Assembly (NCBI GenBank): GCA_964588285.1
Contig: CAZPNX010000010.1
Span: 21,319 to 85,318, forward strand
Direction: 5' to 3'
From: an uncultured bacterium
GTDB taxonomy: Bacteria; Edwardsbacteria; AC1; EtOH8
DNA length: 64,000 bases
This document shows, piece after piece, positions 2,967 to 24,470 of the stretch (positions within the stretch are counted from its first letter, which is position 1; the number at the start of each line of letters is the position of its first letter). A program made the position numbers and the translations under genes. The notes beneath the pieces were generated by a model, which was given only the letters and a program-made list of their open reading frames with translations, ran no database searches and had not been told where the DNA came from.

Positions 2967-3850
2967 GATCGTCTCAGCTTCTTGGGCGTTCGGCTAAGAT
3001 ACGGCAAATGGGGCGGCAGTCCTTCGCCAGTCTCCGAGGCTTTCCCTATGGCCGGGTCCGGACCCAGCAGTATCTCCAGGGCCTGGTTGGCCTGCAGGCA
3101 GGCGGCCACGCCCACCCTGGGGGCCATCAGGCCGCGCCCCGGCCCGGCCTCGGTGGACTCGTCCCCGCAGATGTAGAGGTTCCCCAACCGTCGGGTCTTC
3201 AATAGGTTGTTGCCCCCCCAGCCGGCCATGCCGTTGCCCAGGATCAGAGGGGTTTCCGGCAATTGCGACATCACGGCTTCGGCCAGCATTTCCTTCTGGT
3301 CGGCCCGGTCGAAGGCCTCGATGATCACCCGGCACCTGCCGAAAAGGCTTTTAACGTTCTCGGCCACCACCCTCTGGTATCGCGGCTCCACCTTGACGAA
3401 GGGATTGGCCCTCCTGATGTTCTCGGCCAAGGCTCTGACCTTGGGCTGACCGATCTGGCTTACAAAATACTGCTGTCGATTCAAGTTCGACGGCTCCACT
3501 ACGTCGAAGTCGACGATCACCAGCCTGCCGATCCCGGCCCGCGCCAAAGCCATGGCCGCGGTCGAGCCCAAGCCCCCGCAGCCGGCAATGCCGACGCAGG
3601 CCTTCTTGAGCTTGGCGTGGACGCCCGGAGTATGCCGGGCGGCCATTAGGTGCTCCAGTTCCCTCTTTGACGGCTTCGAGCCCTTCTTTATCAGCACCAG
3701 GCGGTCGCCCTCCTCCAGGGTGTGCTCCAGCAGGCAGGGGAACCCGTTGAGCACGCAGAGGTCGGCCTCGGGCCTGCGCTTCTTGACCAGCTCGGCCACC
3801 TTGGTGCCCTCGCGGACGGCGACCTTCCTTTCGTTTATGTATACTTTCAT
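2963..3850 (-). CDS. ThiF/MoeB-family E1-like adenylyltransferase with an N-terminal ThiS/MoaD-like beta-grasp domain
   Basis: The N-terminal ~65 aa (MKVYINERKVAVREG...GDRLVLIKKG) is ubiquitin-like and lacks a terminal GG. It is followed by an E1 Rossmann motif (VGIAGCGGLGSTAAMALARAGIGRLVIVDFDVVEPSNLNRQ). Confidence 0.8.
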   Translation of the reverse strand: MKVYINERKVAVREGTKVAELVKKRRPEADLCVLNGFPCLLEHTLEEGDRLVLIKKGSKPSKRELEHLMAARHTPGVHAKLKKACVGIAGCGGLGSTAAMALARAGIGRLVIVDFDVVEPSNLNRQQYFVSQIGQPKVRALAENIRRANPFVKVEPRYQRVVAENVKSLFGRCRVIIEAFDRADQKEMLAEAVMSQLPETPLILGNGMAGWGGNNLLKTRRLGNLYICGDESTEAGPGRGLMAPRVGVAACLQANQALEILLGPDPAIGKASETGEGLPPHLPYLSRTPKKLRRS

Positions 3851-3896
3851 TCTTTATCCCCTCTCGAGAGGGGACGGTCGGGAGGCTGGCATATGG

Positions 3897-4919
<1,023 letters not shown>

Positions 4920-19007: not shown

Positions 19008-19718
19008 TTAGACCTTGACCTGCCCCAGCCGGGCGAAAATTTCGTCCAGGGCCGGACCCAGCTTGGCCGGGTCGTCGGTCTTCTCCGGCATGTTGTCGAA
19101 TACGGCGAACGGCACCTTGTGCCCTTTGATCTCGATAATGCCCTGGTCCTTGCCGCCGGAAAGCTTCTCCCAGTCGTTGATCTTGTAATAGTATTCCATC
19201 TTGTCGTCCGGCAGGGAATGGTAGAGAACGCTGTGCTCCTCTCCCTTGCGGGCCCGCTTGCGGTTCTTGCGCACCGACTCCTCGTAGGTCACCTTGATGT
19301 AGACGATCCGGGCCAGCTTGAGGATGTCGTCCGACAGGAAGTTGAAGGCGTCGCGGAACCCGTTCTCCCCGCCCCGGGCGAATTCTATCAGCGAGGTGTG
19401 CTTCTTGAGGAAATCGGGCTCGGCCAGCCTCTTGGCGAAGGCGTTGTTGATCTTCTGGATGCAGACGTGCCAGGCGAACTCGTCCTTGAAGTAGTAGTCG
19501 GGTTTGGAGTGCAGCCGCTCCCTGCCGTTGGCGCTGAGGAAGTCGTCCTCCTCGAACCACTCCCAGATATAGAGAAAGTCGTCGAACTCGGCCAGCTCGG
19601 CCACATTGAAGCGCTCCATCCGCTCCACCAGCGGAGTCTTCTTCAGGTAGTCGATGACCTCGCTCTTGCCGGCGGCCGGCCGGGCCACCAGGATGATGAC
19701 CGGGTGGTGCTTGTCCAT
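19008..19718 (-). CDS. P-loop NTPase / kinase-like protein
   Basis: A Walker A motif (VARPAAGKSE) is present, with 6-phosphofructo-2-kinase/zeta-toxin-like spacing (FARGGENGFRDAFNFL). Confidence 0.5.
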   Translation of the reverse strand: MDKHHPVIILVARPAAGKSEVIDYLKKTPLVERMERFNVAELAEFDDFLYIWEWFEEDDFLSANGRERLHSKPDYYFKDEFAWHVCIQKINNAFAKRLAEPDFLKKHTSLIEFARGGENGFRDAFNFLSDDILKLARIVYIKVTYEESVRKNRKRARKGEEHSVLYHSLPDDKMEYYYKINDWEKLSGGKDQGIIEIKGHKVPFAVFDNMPEKTDDPAKLGPALDEIFARLGQVKV

Positions 19719-19743: not shown

Positions 19744-19790
19744 AGTCATTGCGAGCCCTGCCCCTTGACTGGCGAGCGAAGCAATCTCAA
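19744..19790. repeat. copy A of a local ~45 nt repeat (GTCATTGCGAG-N15-GGYGARCGAAGCAATC)
   Basis: The sequence agtcattgcgagccctgccccttgactggcgagcgaagcaatc lies between the P-loop gene and the GIY-YIG gene. Confidence 0.6.
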
Positions 19791-20071
19791 CCTGATTCGC
19801 TCAAGTCTTTGTACTCGGGATTCATGCTCTTAATCAGCCTCTCCTTGGCCGCCCGCGAGCCCGCCTTGATCTGCTTCTCCCTGGCTATGGCTTTGACGAT
19901 ACTTACGAATGTCTCGTAATAGACCAGTTTGTTCACATTGTATCTTGAAGTGAAACCGGATACCGCCTTGGACTTGTGTTCCGCCACCCGCCTTTTCAGG
20001 TTGTTGGTCACGCCGGTGTATAGCACCGTGTTCCGTTTGTTCGATAGGATGTACACGTAATACCGCTTCAT
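19787..20071 (-). CDS. GIY-YIG nuclease-family small protein
   Basis: MKRYYVYILSNKRNTVLYTGVTNNLKRRVAEH is the GIY-YIG motif (YVYIL...LYTG). I set the start at the internal ATG (CAT 20069-20071). Confidence 0.8.
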   Translation of the reverse strand: MKRYYVYILSNKRNTVLYTGVTNNLKRRVAEHKSKAVSGFTSRYNVNKLVYYETFVSIVKAIAREKQIKAGSRAAKERLIKSMNPEYKDLSESG

Positions 20072-20077
20072 GCTACC

Positions 20078-20250
20078 CGTCATTGCGGGAATTGCGCCTG
20101 GTCTTACAGACGATGCGATCGCTTGACTTTTGCCAGGCGCCAACGGTCATTGCGAGACCGACTTCCCGCCTGGTGAACGAAGCAATCGTTGATCCGTTGT
20201 CAGGCACCGTCCGGGATTGCTCCGCCCGTCCTATGAATGCCCTGCTCGCA
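20078..20250. repeat. cluster of three further copies of the GTCATTGCGAG repeat (direct copies C and B, inverted copy D) upstream of the GIY-YIG gene
   Basis: Copy C (20078-20127) is ccgtcattgcgggaattgcgcc...gatcgcttgac. Copy B (20145-20195) is ggtcattgcgagaccgacttcccgcctggtgaacgaagcaatcg. Copy D (20233-20248) is ctgctcgcaatgacgg, the reverse complement of the core. Confidence 0.6.
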
Positions 20251-20266: not shown

Positions 20267-21133
20267 CTACCCCACCGCCTTCAGCTGCAGGGAGAAGTCC
20301 ATGGCCGGGGCCGAGTGGGTGATGGCTCCCACCGAGATGAAGTCCACCCCGCATTCGGCGATCTGCCGCACGTTATCAATGCTGACGTTGCCCGAGGCCT
20401 CCAATCGGAGTTTCCCCTGGTCCCGGGCCGGATGGGAGAAGACTAAGCGGCAGGCCTCGGCCATCCGCTCCGGCTTCATGTTGTCCAGCATGATGATGTC
20501 CGGCTCCTCGGCCAGGGCTTCCTCCAGCTGGGACAGGTTCTGCACCTCCACCTCGATTTTCACCCGGCCGTGGTCCGCCTCTTTCACCTTGCGGATGGCG
20601 TTGGCCACCCCGCCGGCCGCCTCGATGTGGTTGTCCTTGATGAGCACCATGTCCCAAAGACCCATGCGGTGGTTCTGCCCGCCGCCGCAGGCCACCGCGT
20701 ATTTCTCCAGCGCCCTCAGCCCGGGAGTCGTCTTACGGGTATCGAGTATTTTAGCCCTGGTTCCCCTGACCGCCTCCACGAAACTGTTGGTGAGGGTGGC
20801 GATGCCCGAGAGGTGCTGCAGGAAGTTGAGAGCCGTCCGCTCGGCCGCCAGGATGGAGCGTGTTTTCCCCTGCACTGTCAGAGCCACCTGGCCCAGCTCA
20901 ACCTTCTCCCCGTCCTTGATCTGAACCTCGGCCTTGAGTTCCGGGTCGACCGCCAGGAAGGCCTCCTTGCAGACATCGATCCCGGCCAGCACCCCGTCCT
21001 GCTTGGCCATCACCAGGGCCAGGCCGCAGGCCGTTTCGCCCACCGTGAACTGGCTTGTGATGTCCCCCTTGCCGATGTCCTCTTTAAGAGCTTGCCTGAT
21101 AAGAGGTCTGATTTTTTTGCAATTATATTTCAT
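20267..21133 (-). CDS. nadC: nicotinate-nucleotide pyrophosphorylase (carboxylating)
   Basis: The 288 aa product shows QAPRTase signatures: LDTRKTTPGLR, KDNHI and IMLDNM. The first ~12 codons fall inside the AT-rich segment. Confidence 0.9.
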   Translation of the reverse strand: MKYNCKKIRPLIRQALKEDIGKGDITSQFTVGETACGLALVMAKQDGVLAGIDVCKEAFLAVDPELKAEVQIKDGEKVELGQVALTVQGKTRSILAAERTALNFLQHLSGIATLTNSFVEAVRGTRAKILDTRKTTPGLRALEKYAVACGGGQNHRMGLWDMVLIKDNHIEAAGGVANAIRKVKEADHGRVKIEVEVQNLSQLEEALAEEPDIIMLDNMKPERMAEACRLVFSHPARDQGKLRLEASGNVSIDNVRQIAECGVDFISVGAITHSAPAMDFSLQLKAVG

Positions 21134-21149
21134 TTATGCTTATATCTTT

Positions 21150-21955
21150 TTAAAAGAAACCAACGTTAATTGATAACATTAAATACTTAATATATCCATT
21201 GATATATCTTCCCTTCATGCTTAAGCCAGCATGATAATAGCAAAAAGCATTTCTTTTCATTTTTGGCTTGACACTATCCGACAGCCCGAAACCAGTCAGA
21301 ACACCAAATTCCATTCCTCTGGTCTTTTCGATTTCTTTACTAATGATAATATTTGAATATAGTTTATTGAACGGTGTGCCAGTATACATGATACCAACAG
21401 AATAATCTTGATAAGAACGGTCGTTCTTATACAACAAAGCCAAATCTTCCGATCTTAAAATCACGATATCTTCATTAAACCATTTATAACCAATAAAGGG
21501 AGTAAAATCTGACAATGTGCGATTCTTATAATATGAGAACAACAACGATACGCTCGTACTCCCATAACTCGGATTTTTCTGATATCTAAGCCCCTGTCCA
21601 AACGTTCCTATAAAATCATGCGTTATCAGCAAACCTATCGGTTTATACTTAACTCCATAAATGATATTTAACATACTTGGAAAACCAGTGCCCGCTGTAT
21701 CTATTTGCATCCCCGCTGGTAAAGATAATGGATAATTATAACCTTTGTAATATCCTATACCTATTGAGGCGTCCATGTAAATACTTAGATTGCCGTAATG
21801 TGTACCCAGTCTTCCATATTCCACATTAGTAGAGTCTTCACAAAATAACTGGGATGATAATATGATTAGAGAAAATTGAAAGAAAATAGTAAATATTAAT
21901 GCCTTATAATATTGACTACTTTCTTGTGGTTTTAATGAATGCAAACGTGAACAAA

Positions 21956-21959
<4 letters not shown>
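21150..21959 (-). CDS. hypothetical Tyr/Asn-rich secreted protein, likely an outer-membrane beta-barrel, encoded by an AT-rich island
   Basis: There is an N-terminal signal-like region ([22 protein letters not shown]) and a C-terminal aromatic end (...SINVGFF). A GTG start at 21957-21959 has a GGAGG 8 nt upstream and overlaps the uvrB stop (GTGA). Sampled lines are about 28-45% G+C against about 67% in the flanks. Confidence 0.55.
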
Positions 21960-24049
<2,090 letters not shown>

Positions 24050-24098: not shown

Positions 24099-24470
24099 TC
24101 AGCGTTTGGAGCGGGAGGCCAAATGCGTGATCAGTCCTCCCAGCTTGCTGCCGATCGACTCGATCTGCCTGTCTAATGTTGCCCGTTCTTCATCCGTAAG
24201 ATAGTTGAGCTGACATGCGATCTCGATCAGCGTATCCAACTCGCTTAAAGAACCACCTGAAATGTAGAGAAAAGCGATGAACTCCTTTGACGACCTACGA
24301 GCCGCACCTTCGGCTATGTTAGCCGGGACAGAGACCGCCGCCCGCCTCATTTGGGAGGTCAATCCATAGGCTTCCATTTTGGGAAAGCGCTCGGTAATTT
24401 TGTAGATATCGATCGACATCTTCACGCTTTCCTTCCAAACATCCAGTCTCTTATGCGCCCTCACATACAT
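24099..24470 (-). CDS. four-helix-bundle protein (23S rRNA intervening-sequence-protein family)
   Basis: The 123 aa product reads ...[37 protein letters not shown]...[22 protein letters not shown], which is the canonical family sequence. Confidence 0.8.

Follow-up and report, generated by a model that had tools for sequence, protein, structure and literature searches.

A 0.9-kb AT-rich island lying between uvrB and nadC in a 64,000-nucleotide stretch of DNA (the window, which was analysed over its whole length) carries a single gene. The gene is genuine and subject to purifying selection, and its low G+C content is conserved across members of its family and is not the scar of a recent transfer. 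On balance we lean towards reading it as a resident, vertically inherited accessory gene, probably encoding a small outer-membrane barrel, that has kept a low G+C content over the long term by escaping a GC-raising force. In the window lineage the neighbouring M28 peptidase gene has been lost and the 5' end of nadC rebuilt.

Composition of the island and organization of its gene

A maximum-likelihood two-changepoint fit placed the island at 21083-21982 with a G+C content of 0.330, against 0.645 in the left flank and 0.678 in the right flank. When the region was scanned in 200-nt windows, G+C content fell from 0.62-0.65 to 0.31-0.38 over approximately 21000-21999 and then returned to 0.68, and in 500-nt steps the only region of the 64 kb below 0.51 was 21001-22000 (0.372 and 0.356). 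The lowest 800-nt island window lay 9.9 SD under the 615 windows outside the island (z = -9.9). The ORF within the island had GC1, GC2 and GC3 values of 0.34, 0.36 and 0.31; its neighbours had a GC1 of approximately 0.63, and their codon usage would give this protein a GC3 of 0.86. Its CAI-like index relative to those neighbours was 0.18, while they themselves scored 0.60-0.78, and FYMINK residues made up 0.40 of its protein as opposed to 0.23-0.33 of theirs. AT-richness extended past the ORF into the adjoining spacers and the uvrB tail. Since GC1 and amino-acid composition are shifted as well, the pressure has acted on the DNA as a whole, beyond codon choice. An AT-rich island had been proposed in an earlier sequence-only reading of this DNA, and the changepoint fit, the windowed G+C content and the codon-usage comparison all agree with it. 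The contrast between island and flanks that it described was also found, but the flanks are not uniformly 65-67% G+C as it had stated, having been measured at 62-68%.

The island holds one long minus-strand ORF, which spans 21150-21965 when read from a TTG codon and encodes 269 amino acids when read from the GTG at 21957-21959. The GTG was taken as the better start because just 2 nt separate the TTG from the GGAGG motif. As the sequence-only reading had noted, this GTG overlaps the uvrB stop codon (TGA, 21956-21958) and is preceded at 8 nt by GGAGG, and the uvrB/ORF junction, GGAGGTCTTGGAAGTGATT, is identical at the orthologous locus L003. The island takes in approximately the last 8 codons of uvrB, which carry the ribosome-binding site and start of the ORF. 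Two remarks in the same reading need to be amended: the ORF was said to be integrated in frame, but a 4-nt overlap places it and uvrB in different reading frames, and the overlap was called unusual, whereas ATGA/GTGA overlaps are the most frequent type of gene overlap among prokaryotes, so that the arrangement is not remarkable by itself.

At the other end of the ORF, nadC starts 16 nt beyond the stop codon, and the AT-rich segment does reach into it, as had been claimed, covering approximately its first 14-17 codons. The wider neighbourhood contains an IVP-family gene and a GIY-YIG gene in addition to uvrB and nadC, and no glycan genes adjoining the island gene were seen in the ORF and Pfam view of the neighbourhood. 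An Rfam scan of 20500-22500 at E <= 1 returned no known ncRNA. There were 6 promoter-like sites compared with 2.8 +/- 1.8 in shuffled sequences, which is not convincing as an enrichment. The spacing of the genes and the absence of terminator-like sites suggest that the island gene is probably co-transcribed with uvrB and nadC. The features of the region are collected in Table 1.

Table 1. Features of the uvrB-nadC region, in window coordinates.
Feature	Position	Strand	Basis
AT-rich compositional island, 33.0% G+C	21083..21982	.	Changepoint fit and composition profiles
uvrB, 697 aa	21956..24049	-	Pfam UvrB_inter, UvrB, Helicase_C, UVR; tail compared across lineages
Shine-Dalgarno GGAGG, 8 nt upstream of GTG, within last uvrB codons	21968..21972	-	Sequence reading
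Gene for predicted 269-aa exported beta-rich protein	21150..21959	-	GTG start 21957-21959, TAA stop 21150-21152; ORF list, dN/dS, homologues
Putative signal-peptide region, residues 1-40, conserved Cys40 followed by acidic/hydroxyl residues	21840..21959	-	Anatomy of five members, alignment
C-terminal strand ending in Phe, outer-membrane beta-signal-like	21153..21182	-	Alignment; last predicted strand in both AlphaFold models
60-nt AT-rich segment: 16-nt spacer and new nadC 5' end (MKYNCKKIRPLI...)	21092..21151	-	Break in window-L003 DNA alignment
nadC, quinolinate phosphoribosyltransferase, 288 aa, rebuilt N-terminus	20267..21133	-	Pfam QRPTase_N, QRPTase_C

A small family of putative outer-membrane proteins

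An exhaustive search of 1.84 billion cluster representatives, standing for approximately 15 billion proteins, recovered a family of only five members: the window protein, P0002, P0003, P0006 and P0007, which are 240-269 aa in length. Two further candidates, P0004 and P0005, are long repeat proteins with matches of approximately 40 residues in many copies, and were treated as spurious. Scans of all five members against Pfam, NCBIfam and PHROGs identified no family (for Pfam and NCBIfam even at E <= 10), and a profile search of the PDB with the family gave no match. A tblastn search of 50,697 phage and 72,556 plasmid records found no homologue, nor did scans with family-alignment patterns in 185,579 GTDB species genomes, JGI metagenome contigs or IMG/VR. 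Judged by sequence and profile comparison, this tiny family is linked to no known family and is a new orphan family; it adds an uncharacterised exported, probably outer-membrane, family from a candidate phylum that has no cultured members.

All five members have the anatomy of a Sec signal peptide: the n-region is basic, the hydrophobic core spans 12 residues (mean KD 1.8-2.8) and candidate (-3,-1) cleavage sites are present, in agreement with the signal-like N-terminus that had been ascribed to the protein of approximately 269 aa. One public annotation, P0001, places the start of the gene at Met62 and thereby leaves out the signal peptide. No transmembrane helix was detected in the mature chain of any of the five, the highest 19-residue mean KD being 0.93. 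Three members share a Cys where the signal peptide ends (LFC|EDS, LYC|DDT, GYC|ADS), preceded at position -1 by an aromatic residue; a lipoprotein reading was rejected, as none of the members has a canonical lipobox, [LVI][ASTVI][GAS]C.

The window protein ends in ...NVGFF and contains 9.7% Tyr, 4.8% Asn and 16.7% aromatic residues. A C-terminal Phe is present in three of the five members (window, P0002 and P0003), while P0006 ends in Met and P0007 in Leu, so the aromatic C-terminus typical of outer-membrane barrels, to which the sequence-only reading had drawn attention, applies to the window protein but not to the family as a whole. An AlphaFold model built with the five sequences has eight long antiparallel strands arranged in hairpins, at a pLDDT of 48.5 and a pTM of 0.43 and with residues 195-240 unmodelled; the model built with two sequences was unusable (pLDDT 31). 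When the former, weak as it is, was compared with the PDB using Foldseek, almost all of the top matches (approximately 44) were outer-membrane barrels, the best being OmpA-TM (E = 2.6e-4, TMt 0.55), NspA, Ail, OprF-N (TMt 0.60) and OmpX. The barrel-like character suggested earlier is thus reflected in a beta-rich model that resembles outer-membrane barrels, but the confidence of that model is low (pLDDT 48). Taken together, the protein is probably a small outer-membrane beta-barrel, its location being deduced from the predicted export and fold.

The protein resembles the OmpA N-terminal domain, OmpX/Ail, NspA and OprF-N in its signal peptide, its small-barrel mature size, its high Gly and aromatic content and its C-terminal Phe and, in the weak model, in its long antiparallel hairpin strands. 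It differs from these OmpA-type barrels in having no sequence or profile similarity to them and in carrying its most conserved block, of 20 residues, in a predicted loop outside the strands. OmpA-type small barrels are 148-176 aa, whereas the mature part of the island protein is approximately 229 aa, a greater length that could accommodate 10 strands or long loops. The last strand had looked similar to strand 8 of OmpA (GMLSLGVSYRF), but hhalign gave a probability of 0.2% against OmpA-TM, using an OmpA sequence that was checked against the PDB, and this lead was dropped. A beta-moment scan run with a strict cut-off picked out next to nothing and was uninformative.

The columns invariant in the family are G56, G67, G69, G73, Y74, P94, Y105, G121, K128, P154, E163, L176, G189 and N203. 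Because these are Gly, Pro, Tyr and similar residues and do not form a catalytic set, a non-enzymatic surface or envelope component is to be expected. Identity to P0003 was 0.35-0.40 in the predicted non-strand segments and 0.27-0.32 in the strands.

Relatives of the locus and the slot after uvrB

By UvrB, the nearest named relative of the lineage is a Candidatus Edwardsbacteria MAG, as indicated by one match of 77%. The ORF was found directly after uvrB in three lineages, namely the window, L003/L004 and L086/L087, and these last two loci, which have the same architecture, were each recovered from two separate sequencing runs (L003 and L004 are 100% identical, L086 and L087 99.9%). The sequence-only reading had raised the question of a strain-specific insert in the uvrB-nadC region; the orthologue is absent from this site only in the more distant L088-L090. 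The window-L003 DNA alignment is unbroken from uvrB through the ORF, and the N-termini of the ORFs in L086 and L003 are positionally homologous. Compared with its L003 orthologue over 257 codons, the window ORF has 73.5% amino-acid identity and a dN/dS of 0.13 (dN 0.145, dS 1.12), and dN in the neighbouring core genes is 0.047-0.205.

Neither orthologous lineage carries the gene at a normal G+C content, a finding that would have spoken against a compositionally foreign insert: the ORF locus is 35% G+C in L003, within flanks of 67-71%, and 40% in L086/L087, within flanks of approximately 60-70%. GC3 is 0.31 in the window, 0.31 in L003, 0.43 in L086/L087 and 0.26 in L085, while in the adjoining genes it is 0.71-0.98. 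The L085 member is distant (22% identity) and sits in a G+C-rich context, but not beside uvrB, which indicates that the family has moved at least once. The amino-acid composition of P0006 is that of a G+C-normal gene (GC2 0.50, bounded from the protein alone, as a second metagenome scan did not recover its DNA), and the low-G+C anomaly may therefore be absent from members in other backgrounds.

The lineages that carry the ORF after uvrB are separated by a uvrB dS of 0.35-0.75, and synonymous sites of the ORF are saturated relative to L087. ORF identity is 74% between the window and L003 but 33-36% against L087, with the UvrB C-terminus at 87-89% and M28 at 86%. Towards L087 the dN of the ORF rises 4.5-fold for a rise of approximately 2-fold in uvrB dS, reaching 0.63-0.66 compared with 0.082 for M28. 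Replacement of the allele in L087 was considered as the source of this disproportionate divergence, but L087 is about twice as distant, which leaves an excess of approximately 2.2-fold, and the replacement was downgraded to suggestive.

In more distant relatives the slot immediately 3' of uvrB is a variable islet, being occupied by a methyltransferase gene in L088, by a gene for an LVIVD-repeat protein in L089, and by nothing but a 285-nt spacer in L090. The backbones of L088 and L089 are near-identical, and their cargo genes are lower in G+C than the backbone; the empty slot of L090 is an AT-rich (29-32% G+C) repeated spacer. As the slot is variable in the wider clade, the gene probably arrived by insertion at some point.

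The window lineage has lost the M28 peptidase gene that lies beside the ORF in its relatives. Positions 1514-2882 of L003 have no counterpart in the window in the DNA alignment, and a tblastn search of the window gave no match to M28 peptidase. The 60-nt segment at 21092-21151 stands where the relatives have the M28 gene and the first 17 codons of nadC, and nadC as a whole is 80.6% identical to that of L003. It had been claimed that the island left the operon undisrupted; in fact the M28 gene is gone, as are the 17 codons with which nadC originally began, and 60 nt of AT-rich DNA supply the start of nadC.

Persistence of the low G+C content

In the reading that we favour, the gene would be translated from the GTG overlapping the uvrB stop by way of the GGAGG inside uvrB, and a cleavable signal peptide would direct its product through Sec. 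The exported product would then most likely fold as a small outer-membrane beta-barrel of approximately 8-10 strands, with insertion by way of the C-terminal ...VGFF strand. The low G+C content would be the long-term steady state of the gene family: the gene would belong to the clade's flexible pool and escape whatever drives the core genome to approximately 90% GC3, which is the least secure step. The candidate force is GC-biased gene conversion tied to homologous recombination, or codon-usage selection, and in its absence AT-biased mutation would keep all codon positions and the amino-acid composition near mutational equilibrium. We regard such an escape, from whichever of these forces, as the most likely cause of the low G+C content. 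A correlation between gene G+C content and recombination holds across bacteria (PMC4450053). It is a point against escape from gene conversion that recombination tracts would be expected to carry along a 0.8-kb gene lying between conserved flanks in many cases.

The island gene has features of ORFans, which are known to be shorter and AT-richer (PMC3514957): it is short and AT-rich, has a narrow taxonomic range and occupies a slot that close relatives fill differently. It differs from them in being clearly functional, in having been retained past synonymous saturation and in lacking remnants of an integrative element. The case is a compact one of unexplained and persistent low G+C content in surface-associated genes, known otherwise mainly from wzx/wzy. 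The finding alone opens no new mechanism, and the structural assignment is weak.

A bolder proposal, which we regard as unlikely, is that the family is at its own compositional equilibrium (GC3 of approximately 0.3 as opposed to approximately 0.9), through specific exemption from GC-biased gene conversion or through selected AT-richness (which might bind a silencer or gate the expression of a surface protein), and is the founding member of a structurally new outer-membrane family in which the conserved loop block would serve as a ligand-binding or plug element. If true, the gene would be a clean natural reporter for separating mutation bias from the G+C-raising force in an uncultured candidate phylum.

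Less probable than this is that low G+C content was itself selected, with AT-ending codons that are rare in the host throttling the translation of a potentially toxic envelope protein. Such a role has been proposed for wzy, whose low G+C content and rare codons are believed to reduce its expression (PMC12004945). The low CAI-like index and GC3 of the island ORF and the retention of the anomaly in four lineages are in keeping with this, and coupling to uvrB would otherwise bind the output of the ORF to that of a housekeeping gene. However, selection on codons should affect mainly third positions, whereas GC1 and the amino acids are shifted as strongly, and the AT-richness spills into the spacers and the uvrB tail.

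Ranking below throttling, and improbable in our view, is a hypervariable locus for a surface antigen or phage receptor, with alleles under diversifying or frequency-dependent selection that are swapped by recombination in the flanks, as for wzx/wzy or Opa-type barrels. The steep divergence of the ORF towards L087 between better conserved neighbours would fit such a locus, as would the contigs that tend to end at or near the island (L002, L005 and L085-L087), and there is a precedent in the divergent low-G+C wzx/wzy alleles found at one locus, whose low G+C content is acknowledged as unexplained (PMC3715488). The wzx/wzy genes are alike in having G+C content far under the genome average across lineages and strong divergence at a fixed position between housekeeping genes, but Wzx and Wzy are polytopic inner-membrane proteins encoded in large polysaccharide clusters, whereas the island has just one gene, whose product carries a signal peptide and no transmembrane helix. 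Diversifying selection, which the sequence-only reading had offered as one possibility, is not seen in the dN/dS of 0.13 between the window and L003, and the predicted loops are no more variable than the strands, the best-conserved block itself falling in one of them. In addition, the excess over clock-like scaling is just approximately 2.2-fold and comes from one outgroup lineage, and the contig breaks may reflect low coverage of AT-rich DNA.

Still less likely is that the AT-rich DNA itself was selected, as a platform for a nucleoid protein resembling a xenogeneic silencer, which would hold a surface protein silent under some conditions, or as an internal promoter region for nadC. H-NS is known to repress AT-rich acquired genes (PMC2646131), and such a function would account for AT-richness at all three codon positions and in the adjoining spacers, for the sharp boundaries, and for the AT-rich repeated spacer in the empty slot of L090. 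Against it, promoter-like sites were not clearly enriched, most genomes have AT-rich intergenic spacers in any case, and purifying selection on the protein means that the DNA is more than a regulatory spacer.

It is very improbable that the gene came recently from a low-G+C donor and has yet to ameliorate in composition. The sharp boundaries, the GC3 of 0.31 and the variability of the slot after uvrB across the wider clade would all be expected of such an acquisition, and the sequence-only reading had accordingly proposed a horizontally acquired cassette. However, an orthologue of equally low G+C content occupies the same site in two further lineages with ORF synonymous sites at or past saturation, the distant L085 member has a still lower GC3 in a G+C-rich context, and all relatives among the approximately 15 billion proteins lie in G+C-rich contexts, with no homologue among the low-G+C genomes, phages, plasmids and viral contigs searched. 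No terminal or direct repeats bound the island, no integrase is nearby, no tRNA or tmRNA was found in 10000-34000, and no att-like or other junction motif is common to the lineages. The island resembles a classical genomic island in its atypical composition, sharp boundaries and variable position among relatives, but it is only 0.9 kb long with one gene, lacks an integrase, a tRNA and direct repeats, and is not strain-specific. A sharp low-G+C island alone is therefore insufficient as evidence of recent horizontal transfer, and island-calling pipelines would mislabel this one.

The possibility that the assembly is chimeric, or that the ORF is spurious and lies in contaminating or otherwise foreign DNA, can safely be dismissed: although an AT-rich insert within a G+C-rich contig is a classic sign of a chimera and the independent Logan contig L002, from another run, begins inside the island, L002 is 100% identical to the window across the nadC junction, the JGI contig L001 is 100% identical over 20800-22300 including both junctions, the same architecture was recovered in four other sequencing runs, and the reading frame is conserved with the low dN/dS given above.

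The AT-rich island and its gene

In 200-nt windows the G+C content drops from 0.62-0.65 to 0.31-0.38 across approximately 21000-21999 and then returns to 0.68. A maximum-likelihood two-changepoint fit bounded the island at 21083-21982, with a G+C of 0.330 between flanks of 0.645 and 0.678. Of all 500-nt steps in the 64 kb, only its two (0.372 and 0.356) fall under 0.51, and the lowest 800-nt window lies 9.9 SD under the rest of the window. Both the windowed G+C and the changepoint fit thus confirmed the abrupt-edged compositional island described in the sequence-only reading.

All genes at the locus are encoded on the minus strand. The GTG start of the AT-rich ORF (21957-21959) overlaps the TGA stop of uvrB (21956-21958) and is preceded, 8 nt upstream, by a GGAGG at 21968-21972; both features had been reported earlier and were read in the sequence. 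GTG is preferred since the ORF finder's choice, a TTG, lies just 2 nt away from the GGAGG. The uvrB-ORF junction GGAGGTCTTGGAAGTGATT is identical in the orthologous locus L003, and 16 nt separate the ORF stop from the nadC start. The public gene call P0001, which has the same sequence, begins at Met62 (208 aa) and has therefore lost the signal peptide. No terminator-like sites were found in the region, and it matched no Rfam family.

Features of the uvrB-nadC locus in the window
Feature	Coordinates	Strand	Remarks
236-aa protein gene	19008-19718	minus	P-loop-like ARPAAGKSE motif
GIY-YIG nuclease-domain gene	19787-20143	minus	
nadC	20267-21133	minus	288 aa
AT-rich ORF	21150-21959	minus	269 aa counted from the GTG start
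uvrB	21956-24049	minus	697 aa
UvrB C-terminal extension	21956-22090	minus	past the UVR motif
23S-rRNA-IVP/bAvd-like gene	24099-24470	minus	

Assembly chimerism is contradicted by the data, as the junctions are 100% identical in the JGI contig L001 (across 20800-22300) and, on the nadC side, in L002, a Logan assembly from a different run. Orthologous loci of the same architecture were each recovered from two separate runs (L003 and L004, 100% identical; L086 and L087, 99.9%). The ORF protein is 73.5% identical to its L003 orthologue, with dN 0.145, dS 1.12 and dN/dS 0.13, and is under purifying selection. Independent assemblies tend to break at or beside the ORF (L002, L005, L085, L086, L087 and the P0006 contig): the first base of L002 lies 9 nt ahead of the ORF stop, L005 runs out approximately 65 nt past the uvrB stop, and four member-bearing contigs are just 1.1-2.3 kb in length. 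Low coverage of AT-rich DNA or strain heterogeneity could be the cause.

Family members and predicted product

A word-indexed search of 5.8 billion clusters returned only the ORF sequence itself and P0002, while an exhaustive HMM search covering 1.84 billion representatives contributed P0003 (E = 4.5e-44), P0006 (1.2e-5) and P0007 (8.2e-4); two repeat proteins also returned by the HMM search were regarded as spurious. A profile search with the five sequences gave no further members, no relatives were found in 185,579 species genomes, the JGI contig collection, IMG/VR, phages or plasmids, and none of the five matched Pfam, NCBIfam, PHROGs or PDB sequences. The nearest UvrB among species representatives (77%) is that of a Candidatus Edwardsbacteria MAG, from a candidate phylum; this match, the sole taxonomic evidence, tentatively assigns the lineage to Edwardsbacteria. 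At L085, the most distant family member with DNA, the upstream gene (1-318) is not uvrB, and the family therefore occurs in at least one other genomic context. The C-terminus of that gene, ...GVTVSLGPVRAIFPLWINRP...GGSFRVKM, matched nothing in Pfam.

Signal-peptide anatomy is seen in each of the five members, none of which has a canonical lipobox; three carry a Cys at the signal-peptide end followed by acidic or hydroxyl residues (C-EDS, C-DDT, C-ADS). No segment of the mature chain reaches TM-helix hydrophobicity. AlphaFold gave a pLDDT of 31 from two sequences, and 48.5 (pTM 0.43) from five, with eight long antiparallel strands and residues 195-240 unmodelled. When this weak model was compared with the PDB using Foldseek, the top 44 or so matches were almost only outer-membrane barrels, led by OmpA-TM (E = 2.6e-4), NspA, Ail, OprF-N and OmpX at target-normalised TM-scores of 0.5-0.6, a hint rather than proof of a barrel fold. 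Structurally, small eight-stranded barrels come closest, but sequence comparison did not place the ORF protein among them: hhalign against OmpA-TM, using an OmpA sequence validated against the PDB, returned nothing (probability 0.2%). A C-terminal Phe is present in the window protein, P0002 and P0003, but not in the other two members. Family-invariant columns hold Gly, Pro, Tyr, Lys, Glu, Leu and Asn, residues that do not look like a catalytic set. The predicted strands do not stand out in conservation, and the most conserved block falls in a predicted loop, unlike in antigenically variable barrels. The ORF is best read as a resident, lineage-restricted accessory gene whose product is Sec-exported and probably a small outer-membrane barrel. 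Its translation start would be coupled to the stop of uvrB.

The variable slot after uvrB

The conserved backbone of the locus is uvrB ... M28 peptidase ... nadC ... 236-aa gene. Two further lineages (L003/L004 and L086/L087) have the genes arranged as uvrB - ORF - M28, followed by nadC in L003/L004; the L086/L087 contigs end within M28. The M28 gene is missing from the window. The window-L003 DNA alignment is unbroken over uvrB and the ORF, halts at the ORF stop and resumes 17 codons inside the L003 nadC, leaving 60 AT-rich nt in the window (21092-21151) against 1,369 nt in L003, so M28 was lost in the window lineage. The nadC N-terminus is rebuilt in the window (MKYNCKKIRPLI... vs MPPAELRKKAYLPII... 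in L003). Synonymous distances in uvrB give the tree ((window, L003), L087), with dS 0.35 vs 0.70-0.75. In L086 and L003 the N-termini of the ORF occupy homologous positions, apart from an indel of approximately 7 nt at the junction; this fits a single ancestral arrival of the ORF in the slot.

In more distant relatives, with UvrB C-termini 57-63% identical, the slot just 3' of uvrB contains a UbiE-type methyltransferase (L088, GC3 0.63), a 715-aa LVIVD-repeat secreted protein (L089, GC3 0.64), or no gene but a repeated spacer of 285 nt at 29-32% G+C (L090). Since contents differ, the slot is a variable islet; L088 and L089 nearly match in their UvrB tails and M28 N-termini, yet their cargo differs. 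Genes carried in the slot have a lower G+C than the backbone, and the ORF family marks the extreme. The locus showed neither a junction motif common to the lineages nor a flanking repeat, tRNA or integrase.

The L090 spacer (468-752) holds two copies of an approximately 105-nt unit, 94% identical over 89 nt, which begins with GGGACAC and ends with GTGTCC; possible readings are a repeat of MITE-like or regulatory nature, or debris left by cargo turnover. L089 (GCA_009668885.1, SBEJ01000207.1) is labelled Rhodocyclaceae bacterium, but its UvrB tail and M28 N-terminus are near-identical to those of L088 and share the window's backbone, and it was probably mis-binned. Its LVIVD gene call overlaps uvrB by 67 nt, and the true start is likely the downstream MKSILLIIF.... 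In L005, an Edwardsbacteria representative whose contig ends early, the gene after uvrB opens with MKRIFILAWLLVPAVLW (2025-2076), resembling the L089 LVIVD signal peptide MKSILLIIFATVPGVLLAQ, suggesting that the slot commonly carries secreted cargo.

Comparison of uvrB 3' ends (window, L003, L086, L088, L089, L090 and L005) showed that UvrB of this clade has a basic C-terminal extension of approximately 40 residues, ending in RGRG[KR][RK]K in most lineages and in KNRRSWK in the window and L003, where this stretch also supplies the ORF ribosome-binding site. The 236-aa protein is very conserved across lineages (93% to L003, also present in L088); it matched no Pfam family, with just a weak dNK match (E = 0.11), and is a conserved unknown, possibly kinase-like.

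Persistence of low G+C

The ORF has GC1/GC2/GC3 of 0.34/0.36/0.31, compared with 0.55-0.63, 0.30-0.41 and 0.83-0.91 in neighbouring genes, whose codon usage would give its protein an expected GC3 of 0.86. Its CAI-like index is 0.18 (neighbours 0.60-0.78) and its FYMINK fraction 0.40 (neighbours 0.23-0.33). The anomaly was seen in every family member with fetchable DNA. For P0006, whose DNA was not retrievable, bounds from the protein require a GC2 of 0.50 and a GC1 of 0.42-0.58, which are normal, and AT-rich coding is therefore not demanded by the fold itself.

Composition of the ORF and flanking genes by locus
Locus	ORF G+C	ORF GC3	Flanking GC3
Window	0.335	0.31	0.84 (nadC), 0.90 (uvrB)
L003	0.35	0.31	0.92-0.94
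L086/L087	0.405	0.43	0.71-0.91
L085 (protein 22% identical)	0.32	0.26	0.82

Synonymous sites of the ORF are near saturation between the window and L003 and beyond it to L087. Because the anomaly is conserved despite this, the low G+C is a maintained state, a long-term equilibrium, rather than the fading signature of a recent transfer. As the shift extends to all three codon positions and into the adjacent spacers, a DNA-level cause is favoured, in which AT-biased mutation at the ORF would be unopposed by the force raising G+C elsewhere in the genome. Escape from GC-biased conversion is a concrete candidate, since gene G+C is linked to recombination in bacteria (PMC4450053). One rival would be selection for rare codons and low expression, likewise proposed for wzy (PMC12004945); another is selection for AT-rich DNA that would serve as a platform for silencing or regulation (PMC2646131). 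A third is replacement of alleles at a hypervariable surface locus, for which the ORF divergence to L087, in excess by roughly 2.2-fold, is no more than suggestive. A low-G+C donor and a recent transfer are contradicted by the low GC3 kept in all DNA-bearing members and by the synonymous distances between the orthologues; the sequence-only reading, which proposed a horizontally acquired cassette or a diversifying receptor or porin gene, stands in its observation and in part of its interpretation, but not as a recent import.

In evolutionary behaviour the ORF is most closely paralleled by wzx/wzy, genes at 28-37% G+C against 51-52% for their genome, which have divergent alleles at a single locus and whose low G+C across polysaccharide clusters "needs explanation" according to the authors (PMC3715488); unlike the ORF protein, their products are polytopic inner-membrane proteins. 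The ORF also matches ORFans at large, genes known to be shorter and AT-richer (PMC3514957), but differs in being clearly functional and long retained. The novelty lies in the orphan family itself, whose proteins are exported and barrel-like and whose compositional anomaly persists; the kinds are known. It makes a clean, instructive case, but the phenomenon has precedents and the fold assignment is weak.

On either side of the uvrB-nadC block lies a small gene of lower G+C (0.51-0.52, GC3 0.62-0.67), namely the GIY-YIG nuclease-domain gene and the 23S-rRNA-IVP/bAvd-like gene. Where the window has GIY-YIG, between nadC and the gene for the 236-aa protein, L003 carries a PDDEXK_3 gene (3768-4157, G+C 0.46), and this constitutes a second variable slot with small, selfish-looking occupants.
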